Of a DNA stretch of 64,000 nucleotides, positions 58,810 through 59,838 are shown in pieces. The notes beneath the pieces are model-generated. The model had not been told where the DNA came from. It saw only the letters and a program-made list of their open reading frames with translations, and did not search any database. The stretch lies in assembly GCF_030013205.1 (NCBI RefSeq), contig NZ_CP122648.1; one strand, given 5' to 3'. Positions within the stretch are counted from its first letter, which is position 1; every line of letters begins with the position of its first letter. The position numbers and the translations under genes were made by a program. The DNA comes from Escherichia coli. Lineage in GTDB: Bacteria > Pseudomonadota > Gammaproteobacteria > Enterobacterales > Enterobacteriaceae.

Positions 58810-59335
58810 TGCACGAAACCACTGCAACAGCTGTTGAAAAGCCGGAATGTACTCTTTATTGCAAACATTTCAGGGATGAAGTGAAGATGAATTGAGACGT
58901 AGTATCCACACCAAGCCGGCGTTATCCGGTGAGGCGCAATGTTGCGGGGGCTTTATCCCTGGTGGCATTGGTTGCTGGAAAGAGAAAACCCCCGCACGTT
59001 GAGAGGTAAAACCTGACAACAAAACGGGGGCTAATCTTGAAACCAGACACTTCAAGAATAGCCGCAAAATGTTGTCGTTACAACAAGGCGGCTATATGAC
59101 GCTCGCGCAGTTTGCCATGATTTTCTGGCACGACCTGGCGGCACCGATCCTGGCGGGAATTATTACCGCAGCGATTGTCGGCTGGTTGCGTAACCGGAAG
59201 TAAGGTGAAAACGGGCGTCAGGCTGCCGTGATGGCAATATGCGCCCGAAACCGGCCGCAGGGGTAACAACCTGCGGCCTTTTTTGTCTTTATCTCTTCCG
59301 CAAGTAAACATTAGCAACCCGACCTGGAATCATCA
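58810..59335 (+). repeat. long direct repeat unit 1 (ldr/rdl type I toxin-antitoxin locus)
   Basis: About 530-bp unit nearly identical to 59342-59838. Confidence 0.75.
59096..59203 (+). CDS. ldrA: Ldr type I toxin (35 aa)
   Basis: Read from DNA: MTLAQFAMIFWHDLAAPILAGIITAAIVGWLRNRK; below the ORF track cutoff. Confidence 0.85.
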   Translation: MTLAQFAMIFWHDLAAPILAGIITAAIVGWLRNRK

Positions 59336-59341
59336 TCCAGA

Positions 59342-59838
59342 GCACTCATGAAACGACTGCAACAGCTGTTGAAAAGCCGGAATGTACTCTTCATTGCAAA
59401 CATTTCAGGGATGAAGTGAAGATGAATTGAGACGTAATATCCACACCAAGCCGGCGTTATCCGGTGAGGCGCAATGTTGCGGGGGCTCTATCCCTGGTGG
59501 CATTGGTTGCTGGAAAGAGAAAACCCCCGCACGTTGAGAGGTAAAACCTGACAACAGAACGGGGGCTAATCTTGAACCAGAACAATTCAAGAATAGCCGC
59601 AAAATGTTGTCATTACAACAAGGCGGCTATATGACGCTCGCGCAGTTTGCCGTGATTTTCTGGCACGACCTGGCAGCACCGATCCTGGCGGGAATTATTA
59701 CCGCAGCGATTGTCAGCTGGTGGCGTAACCGGAAGTAAGGTGAAAACGGGCGTCAGGCTGCCGTGATGGCAATATGCGCCCGAAACCGGCCGCAGGAGTA
59801 ACAGCCTGCGGCCTTTTTTGTATCCGGCCCCATGAATA
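59342..59838 (+). repeat. long direct repeat unit 2
   Basis: Second ldr unit; ends at the IS200 copy B boundary. Confidence 0.75.
59631..59738 (+). CDS. ldrB: Ldr type I toxin (35 aa), second copy
   Basis: Read from DNA: MTLAQFAVIFWHDLAAPILAGIITAAIVSWWRNRK. Confidence 0.85.
   Translation: MTLAQFAVIFWHDLAAPILAGIITAAIVSWWRNRK

Follow-up and report, generated by a model that had tools for sequence, protein, structure and literature searches.

The closest described relatives of the locus reported here are the long direct repeat (LDR) loci of Escherichia coli K-12, which carry type I toxin-antitoxin pairs made up of an Ldr toxin peptide and an Rdl antisense RNA. In strain MG1655, the units ldrC/rdlC, ldrB/rdlB and ldrA/rdlA lie between chaA and kdsA, in agreement with a first-pass annotation of the present DNA, which credited K-12 with three units at this site. 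The ldrD/rdlD pair (LDR-D) differs in its location, at the bcsG-yhjV locus, and in being a single unit in K-12. Over-production of LdrD is toxic, and this has been demonstrated for LdrD only (PMC4147584). RdlD is antisense to the 5' UTR of ldrD and does not overlap the ribosome-binding site (PMC4147584), and it counters LdrD toxicity through inhibition of protein synthesis rather than by pairing with the ribosome-binding site (PMC4147584, PMC8167048). A 5'-UTR leader ORF called ldrX, which overlaps the region in which toxin translation is initiated, has been proposed (PMC4147584, PMC8167048). Its coupling to toxin translation has been compared to that of mok for hok, in a model that is itself unconfirmed (PMC4147584).

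LDR units resemble the hok/sok/mok system in these respects: the toxin mRNA is stable and structured and has a long 5' UTR, the antisense RNA is short and unstable and pairs at a site upstream of the toxin start, and a leader ORF overlapping this start has been proposed to mediate its action (PMC4147584, PMC8167048). However, the peptide and RNA sequences of the two systems are unrelated, and for ldr/rdl the leader-ORF model has the status of a proposal. A separate match to sok was detected elsewhere in the DNA analysed here (6220-6387; Rfam).

We analysed a 64,000-nucleotide stretch of E. coli DNA (contig NZ_CP122648.1; hereafter the window), in which the region between chaA and kdsA is almost certainly the known chromosomal ldr/rdl type I toxin-antitoxin (LDR) array, with two units compared with three in K-12. 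The site, the flanking genes and the 535-bp period are those of K-12 LDR-A/B/C, nucleotide identity is 96-98%, and each unit has the same anatomy, namely a 5' UTR, an antisense Rdl RNA, a 35-aa ORF and a terminator. Apart from the number of units, the window differs from K-12 in its peptide alleles G29/L31 and V8, which are absent from K-12, and in an IS200C element within the ldrA-kdsA spacer, which carries no insert in K-12. The window units also share their architecture with LDR-D, with conservation that covers the 5' UTR and the Rdl core (alignment columns ~101-230). LdrD and the window peptides are alike in being 35 aa long and in having W30 and a basic tail, and L31 is common to LdrD and unit 1. 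Nevertheless, the LdrD peptide is only ~60% identical to the window Ldr peptides, and the leader ORF of LDR-D is fused in frame with ldrD, whereas that of the window units ends at a TGA overlapping the ldr ATG.

Two tandem LDR units

A repeat finder identified a direct-repeat family with a period of 535 bp, whose copies (58812-59111 and 59347-59646) are 96% identical. Pairwise alignment extends the repeat to a core of ~475 bp per unit, in which 457 of 475 positions (96.2%) are identical between units 1 and 2, an extent and identity that exclude a chance match. The first-pass annotation had proposed two units of about 0.5 kb each, and this agrees with the two tandem LDR units that we find at 58812-59821, with their 535-bp period and 475-bp core. 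From left to right, the order is chaA (57591-58691, plus strand), the two units, IS200 and kdsA (60597-61451, minus strand), such that the ~0.5-kb tandem direct repeats lie in the chaA-kdsA intergenic region. The units and the terminators that close them are the following.

58812..59346, plus strand: LDR unit 1, chaA-proximal, consisting of a 475-bp core (58812-59286) and a 60-bp inter-unit spacer (59287-59346)
59347..59821, plus strand: LDR unit 2, kdsA-proximal and of the K-12 "A-type", delimited by the repeat and by alignments
59253..59286, plus strand: intrinsic terminator of the ldr-1 mRNA, a nine-pair stem with 8 G-C pairs, then TTTTTT (terminator scan)
59788..59821, plus strand: intrinsic terminator of the ldr-2 mRNA (terminator scan)

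Homology between the repeats breaks off after the terminator T-run, at 59286 in unit 1 and at 59821 in unit 2. The end previously assigned to the locus, 59838, matches the junction with IS200; the end of the repeat homology is instead 59821. The alignment reveals no third unit in the window and both ldr ORFs are undisrupted, in keeping with the earlier two-unit description. RefSeq annotates the same order in strain K_EC180: chaA, two "type I toxin-antitoxin system toxin Ldr family" CDSs, IS200C tnpA and kdsA; its annotation of the units has no minus-strand feature.

Ldr peptides

59096..59203, plus strand: ldr-1 CDS, 35 aa, allele G29/L31, WP_021564294.1 (Pfam PF13940; RefSeq annotation in K_EC180)
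59631..59738, plus strand: ldr-2 CDS, 35 aa, allele V8, WP_064528730.1 (Pfam PF13940; RefSeq annotation)

The unit 1 peptide is MTLAQFAMIFWHDLAAPILAGIITAAIVGWLRNRK and that of unit 2 is MTLAQFAVIFWHDLAAPILAGIITAAIVSWWRNRK. When the translated ORFs are compared, they differ exactly at the residues listed previously, M/V8, G/S29 and L/W31. Both match the Ldr_toxin family (PF13940) over the whole of its profile (positions 1-35 of 35), with 87.3 bits for ldr-1 and 82.4 bits for ldr-2, where the Pfam cutoff is 27 bits. No NCBIfam model matches either 35-aa peptide, so Pfam alone identifies them. Together with rdlD matches for both antisense RNAs (below), these matches uphold the original assignment of the locus to ldr/rdl.

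In members of the Ldr/Fst superfamily, a hydrophobic helix precedes a conserved tryptophan and clustered charged residues (PMC2887945). Both window peptides carry this signature, in a C-terminal part that reads ...AAPILAGIITAAIV(G/S)W(L/W)RNRK, and both keep W30, the conserved tryptophan, as well as the basic RNRK tail. The leucine at position 31 of unit 1 is a lineage-specific change from tryptophan (W31L), and is also the residue found in LdrD. By analogy with LdrD, the window Ldr peptides would be toxic on over-production.

Relative to K-12 ldrD, the ldr ORFs have a dN/dS of ~0.2 (pS 0.63-0.67, pN ~0.25), which places the ldr frame under longer-term purifying selection. Variable sites of the ldr ORF among A/B/C-type copies comprise 8 nonsynonymous and 2 synonymous changes, a ratio near the neutral expectation that leaves recent constraint on the peptide undemonstrated among these copies. 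Judging from the sequences compared, the ldr alleles of the window are lineage-specific. Units at least 99% identical to unit 1 of the window are limited to 18 records, and other Ldr proteins are encoded in genomes that share the two-unit and IS200 architecture.

Rdl antisense RNAs

58983..59048, minus strand: rdl-1 antisense antitoxin RNA, ~66 nt (Rfam RF01813 rdlD, 91.8 bits)
59518..59583, minus strand: rdl-2 antisense antitoxin RNA (Rfam RF01813 rdlD, 87.6 bits)
59055..59083, minus strand: putative rdl-1 promoter, read by eye, with -35 TTGTAA (59083-59078), a 17-nt spacer and -10 TATTCT (59060-59055)
59590-59618, minus strand: putative rdl-2 promoter, the unit-2 equivalent, read by eye

Both Rdl RNAs cover positions 1-66 of the 66-position rdlD model, whose gathering score is 50, and the position of rdl-1 matches that of the annotated K-12 rdlC. 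Each has a fold energy of -27.1 kcal/mol (z = -4.9 for rdl-1 and -5.8 for rdl-2), and in the predicted fold, the first 11-16 nt form an unpaired 5' tail, which leads into a long hairpin and a U-run. A terminator scan found the 3' hairpins of both RNAs, with a terminator-like site at the 3' end of rdl-1 (59007-58988). The putative rdl-1 promoter agrees with the consensus at 8 of 12 positions and lies 6 nt upstream of the 5' end of the RNA; its score falls below the threshold of the promoter scan.

The distance from Rdl to the ldr start codon is 48 nt (rdl-1 at 59048-58983, ldr ATG at 59096; unit 2 is offset by +535). Thus, Rdl is antisense to the ldr mRNA 5' UTR at 48-113 nt upstream of the AUG and does not overlap the start codon, a layout that matches the one published for ldrD/rdlD (PMC4147584). 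No other part of the repeat varies as much as the Rdl region, in which 14 of 67 alignment columns are variable compared with 6-10% elsewhere, and this variation is chiefly in the 5' tail. Considered together with the lineage-specific G29/L31 toxin, the variable tail raises the possibility that each Rdl acts on its own ldr only. We regard functional divergence of this kind, with each Rdl neutralizing only its own ldr mRNA, as unlikely. If it were nevertheless true, gain or loss of a unit would change the set of independently controlled toxins in a cell. Among Sib/Ibs pairs, each antisense RNA is specific to its own partner.

Transcripts, leader ORFs and a possible mechanism

58900..58905, plus strand: putative -10 box of the ldr-1 promoter (TAGTAT), a conserved hexamer that is TAGAAT in K-12 LDR-D
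59435-59440, plus strand: putative -10 box of the ldr-2 promoter (TAATAT), the unit-2 equivalent
59037..59099, plus strand: candidate leader ORF of the ldrX type, with a TTG start in the Rdl-complementary region and 20 codons
59572-59634, plus strand: candidate leader ORF, the unit-2 equivalent, with a TTG start

The -10-like hexamer is the only well-conserved block upstream of column 101 of the alignment. Strong conservation with LDR-D begins at this column, which corresponds to window position 58912, and the ldr-1 transcript probably starts nearby. A scan of 58650-60650 for the sigma-70 consensus found no promoter, and the promoters that we propose for ldr and rdl are weak matches to the consensus. 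The predicted ldr mRNA, taken from the -10-like hexamer to the terminator, is ~375 nt long and highly structured (-166 kcal/mol, z = -6.0), and the ldr start region falls within a long-range helix of the predicted structure.

An ORF that initiates at TTG and reaches the ldr AUG is present in all 16 units compared, which come from seven strains and include K-12 ldrD. It ends at an overlapping TGA in 13 of these units, as in both window units, where the stop codon and the ldr start codon overlap as ATGA; in the remaining 3 of 16, it is in frame with ldr and yields a 55-codon ORF. We considered whether the leader ORF is a conserved coding frame, and rejected this idea on the grounds that its frame relative to ldr shifts in these three units. 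The occurrence of the TTG ORF in all units fits the coupling model, yet falls short of establishing a conserved leader peptide, and the ORF is a candidate for the published ldrX.

These elements could operate as follows. Rightward transcription of each ~475-bp unit would give a structured ~375-nt mRNA, whose 3' part would encode the 35-aa hydrophobic Ldr peptide, presumably toxic if over-produced. From the opposite strand of each unit, the ~66-nt Rdl RNA would be made, complementary to the ldr mRNA in its 5' UTR. Pairing by Rdl would block the short leader ORF, which starts in the paired region and ends at, or passes through, the ldr start codon. Blocking the leader ORF would in turn prevent coupled translation of the toxin, similarly to the action of Sok on mok/hok.

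Some of the observations described above might instead be explained if both units were decaying, non-functional remnants that no longer express toxin or antitoxin. The near-neutral ratio of nonsynonymous to synonymous changes (8:2) among A/B/C-type copies, the lineage-specific W31L change in unit 1 and the absence of a promoter from the consensus scan are all in favour of decay. However, both ldr ORFs are intact and full length with high Pfam scores, both Rdl RNAs cover the whole Rfam model, and L31 occurs naturally in LdrD, whose toxicity was established experimentally. In addition, the terminators, -10 elements and 5' UTR are near-invariant across 15 units from seven strains. We therefore consider decay very unlikely, and prefer to interpret both units as ldr/rdl pairs of the known type.

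Minus-strand ORFs

The list of open reading frames contains four minus-strand ORFs in this region.

58870-59067, minus strand: 65-aa ORF in unit 1 (ORF list)
59405-59602, minus strand: 65-aa ORF in unit 2 (ORF list)
59078-59317, minus strand: 79-aa ORF that starts in the inter-unit spacer
59613-59870, minus strand: 85-aa ORF that starts inside the right end of IS200

The first-pass annotation had suspected that these ORFs, which are antisense to the units, are not coding, and our results bear out this view. Arguing that they are real protein-coding genes are the 65 to 85 codons that stay open and the occurrence of the 65-aa ORF in both units. On the other hand, searches of the 65-85-aa ORFs against Pfam and NCBIfam gave no match, and RefSeq annotates none of them in any of the 14 genomes inspected. 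The 65-aa frame is not conserved across units: a frameshift disrupts it in K-12 unit C and GM4792, S1-CAM unit 3 lacks it, and in unit 2 of both EDL933 and S1-CAM it is cut to 49 aa. The 79-aa and 85-aa ORFs start in flanks that are not homologous to each other, and the region is already explained by the ldr mRNA and Rdl. It is thus extremely improbable that these ORFs are genes. In a correct annotation of the locus, the minus-strand ORF calls would be dropped, leaving two toxin genes (ldr), two antisense RNAs (rdl) and a single IS200.

Relationship to K-12 units and copy-number variation

The core of unit 1 shares 98.1% identity with K-12 unit C and 97.9% with unit B, and its left flank is collinear with that of the chaA-adjacent unit in K-12. 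Unit 2 is 97.9% identical to K-12 unit A, with which it has the A-type motif GAACCAGAACAA in common; to its right, the sequence remains collinear with the ldrA-kdsA spacer of K-12 as far as 59836. In the two-unit state, the units retained would be the one next to chaA and the A-type one next to kdsA.

We asked whether unit 1 might be the product of a single crossover between units C and B of a K-12 array. Along unit 1, the sites that distinguish K-12 C from B read C, C, B, B, C, B, C, C, B, B, and this alternation led us to reject a single crossover. Several of the "C-specific" states are private to K-12. With alternating sites and K-12-private C states, no single breakpoint can be placed, and either two or three units may be the ancestral state.

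The first-pass annotation had remarked that the repeat copy number looked variable, and 14 complete E. coli genomes in which we inspected the interval between chaA and kdsA corroborate this, with one unit in four genomes, two in five and three in five.

1 unit: ST131 isolate 42, GN02350, CU39ES-1, K-12 GM4792
2 units: K_EC180 (the lineage of the window), EDL933, GPT24-02, Z142-2, strain 7/2
3 units: MG1655, BL21(DE3), S1-CAM-02-A, S19-141, 03_3013

When all loci are pooled, a single-unit query matches 1-12 places per genome (median 4) among the 5,426 genomes searched. Lineage-specific duplications and losses have already been described for the Ldr family (PMC2887945). The two-unit array and its neighbouring IS200 are, on the evidence of these comparisons, ordinary strain-to-strain variation, and two units is one of three common states at the site.

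The single unit of K-12 GM4792 is a C/A hybrid: its 5' half shows C-specific K-12 states, namely TTGCGACG and a deletion of 1 nt, and its 3' half has A-specific states. Such a hybrid could be the product expected of unequal homologous recombination between C and A, or could result from assembly collapse. More generally, the number of units may shift through homologous recombination between the near-identical repeats, where the direction of change is one that we infer. The significance of the locus beyond its annotation is small, but it provides a clear example of recombination-driven change in copy number within a tandem type I array.

Collapse during assembly might also account for the window, if a true three-unit array had been reduced to two units. 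Tandem 535-bp repeats at 96-98% identity are collapsible in short-read assemblies, and the hybrid in GM4792 could be an artefact of the same kind. However, a 1,401-bp query that covers the locus matches at least 10 independently assembled complete genomes (porcine ETEC strains and K_EC180) at 100% identity. The two-unit architecture with IS200 is also found in divergent lineages with different ldr alleles, and two-unit arrays occur without IS200 in EDL933 and GPT24-02. Moreover, the two units of the window have distinct diagnostic sites and distinct flanks. A collapsed assembly therefore has almost no likelihood, and we take the two-unit array to be the real state of this lineage.

IS200 element and kdsA terminator

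59837..60545, minus strand: IS200C (called "copy B" previously), ~709 bp, one of two copies in the window, delimited by comparison with the K-12 empty site
59944-60402, minus strand: IS200C tnpA, encoding a 152-aa Y1 transposase
60535-60412, minus strand: structured RNA in the IS200C 5' UTR (Rfam STnc490, 146.4 bits)
60546..60574, minus strand: kdsA terminator, GCCTTAGCG-loop-CGCTAAGGC then T6 (sequence, inverted repeat and flank comparison)

The element has the Y1 (HUH) transposase, the length of ~0.7 kb and the structured left end of IS200, a member of the IS200/IS605 family, and is itself without unusual features. Its transposase matches Pfam Y1_Tnp with 130.7 bits and NCBIfam transpos_IS200 with 147.7 bits. 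The empty site in K-12 reads catg-aaaaaa-gtc, which places the insertion between window positions ~59836 and 60546; the ends are uncertain by ~2 nt, as both junctions lie within A-runs. Over 717 bp, the two IS200 copies of the window are 99.4% identical (59835-60551 and 36782-37498), and both sit directly after terminator T-runs.

IS200 had been described as abutting the second unit. It does follow unit 2, but "abuts" is slightly loose: the element starts 13-15 nt past the T-run of the unit 2 terminator and leaves the unit uninterrupted. On the minus strand, its left end immediately follows the kdsA terminator's T6 run. IS200C would have been inserted later, in the gap that separates the terminator of the last ldr unit from that of kdsA, and would have touched neither gene.

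We find the junction between ldr and IS200 in 259 of 5,426 complete genomes, and it offers a convenient lineage marker. Its carriers include lineages in which the locus is ~1-2% different from that of the window and in which other ldr alleles occur, and the IS200 insertion is therefore an inherited one rather than an event private to the window. As a separate matter, IS200 may prefer insertion directly after terminator T-runs, a suggestion to which we assign the same low probability as to functional divergence of the two units.

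Variability of the Rdl region

Among A-, B- and C-type LDR units (named for their relatedness to K-12 ldrA, ldrB and ldrC), the most variable segment is the Rdl region, where 14 of 67 alignment columns vary, versus 6-10% elsewhere. This variation clusters in the single-stranded 5' tail of the antitoxin RNA, which reads GUCUGGUUUCAAG or GUUCUGGUUCAAG (window positions 59037-59048 and 59572-59583). The variable tail could confer cognate specificity. The chaA-proximal unit (unit 1) of the O157:H7 strain EDL933 carries a 6-nucleotide deletion, GAACGG (columns 212-217 of alignment A2), that removes part of the stem of Rdl and also lies in the 5' UTR of ldr; the Rdl hairpin of this unit may be weakened as a result.

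In K-12 substr. GM4792, the chaA-kdsA interval holds only one LDR unit (locus L006, 3001-3474). This unit is a hybrid, with a 5' half specific to C and a 3' half specific to A, and reflects either a three-to-one collapse through unequal recombination or an assembly artefact.

Leader ORF and predicted fold of the ldr mRNA

A leader ORF with a TTG start, located within the Rdl-paired region, extends to the ldr AUG in all 16 units compared. Its two representatives in the window are:

59037-59099, + strand, leader ORF, TTG start
59572-59634, + strand, leader ORF, TTG start

In 13 of the 16 units the leader ORF ends in a TGA that overlaps the ldr ATG. A 1-nucleotide indel places it in frame with ldr in the other three (EDL933 unit 2, unit 2 of another compared locus, L007, and K-12 ldrD), creating an ORF of 55 codons.

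The predicted fold of the ldr mRNA (58912-59286, + strand) is unusually structured (z = -6.0). In its 5' region, nucleotides 22-26 pair with the stretch of 3' UTR that immediately precedes the terminator; the ldr start is placed within a long-range helix. As a prediction, the arrangement is reminiscent of the fold-back inhibition of hok.

IS200 insertion sites

Both IS200 copies in the window (copy A, 36782-37498; copy B, 59837-60545) carry tnpA on the minus strand, and directly 5' of the left end of each is a G+C-rich hairpin followed by a T-run, also on the minus strand. The left end of copy B comes just after the kdsA terminator, GCCTTAGCG/CGCTAAGGC-T6, and that of copy A just after ggcgttgagcaatcgacgcc-T7. 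Because both left ends are directly 3' of such elements, they hint at a preference of IS200 for insertion immediately behind intrinsic terminators.

The right-end junction of copy B (59837) reads catgaaTaaatatcc in the window and catgaaAaaatatcc in strain Z142-2; this difference is a SNP that falls exactly on the ambiguous boundary between IS200 and its flank.

Other RNA features in the window

6220-6387, - strand, sok antitoxin, full-length Rfam match (109 bits)
42291-42850, + strand, two tRNA genes, then a pair of RtT repeats scoring 137 and 129 bits
78-150, - strand, further tRNA

The sok match suggests that the window contains, apart from the ldr/rdl array, a chromosomal hok/sok type I toxin-antitoxin locus. 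The layout of tRNA genes and RtT elements at 42291-42850 resembles the tyrT/tyrV-rtT arrangement.
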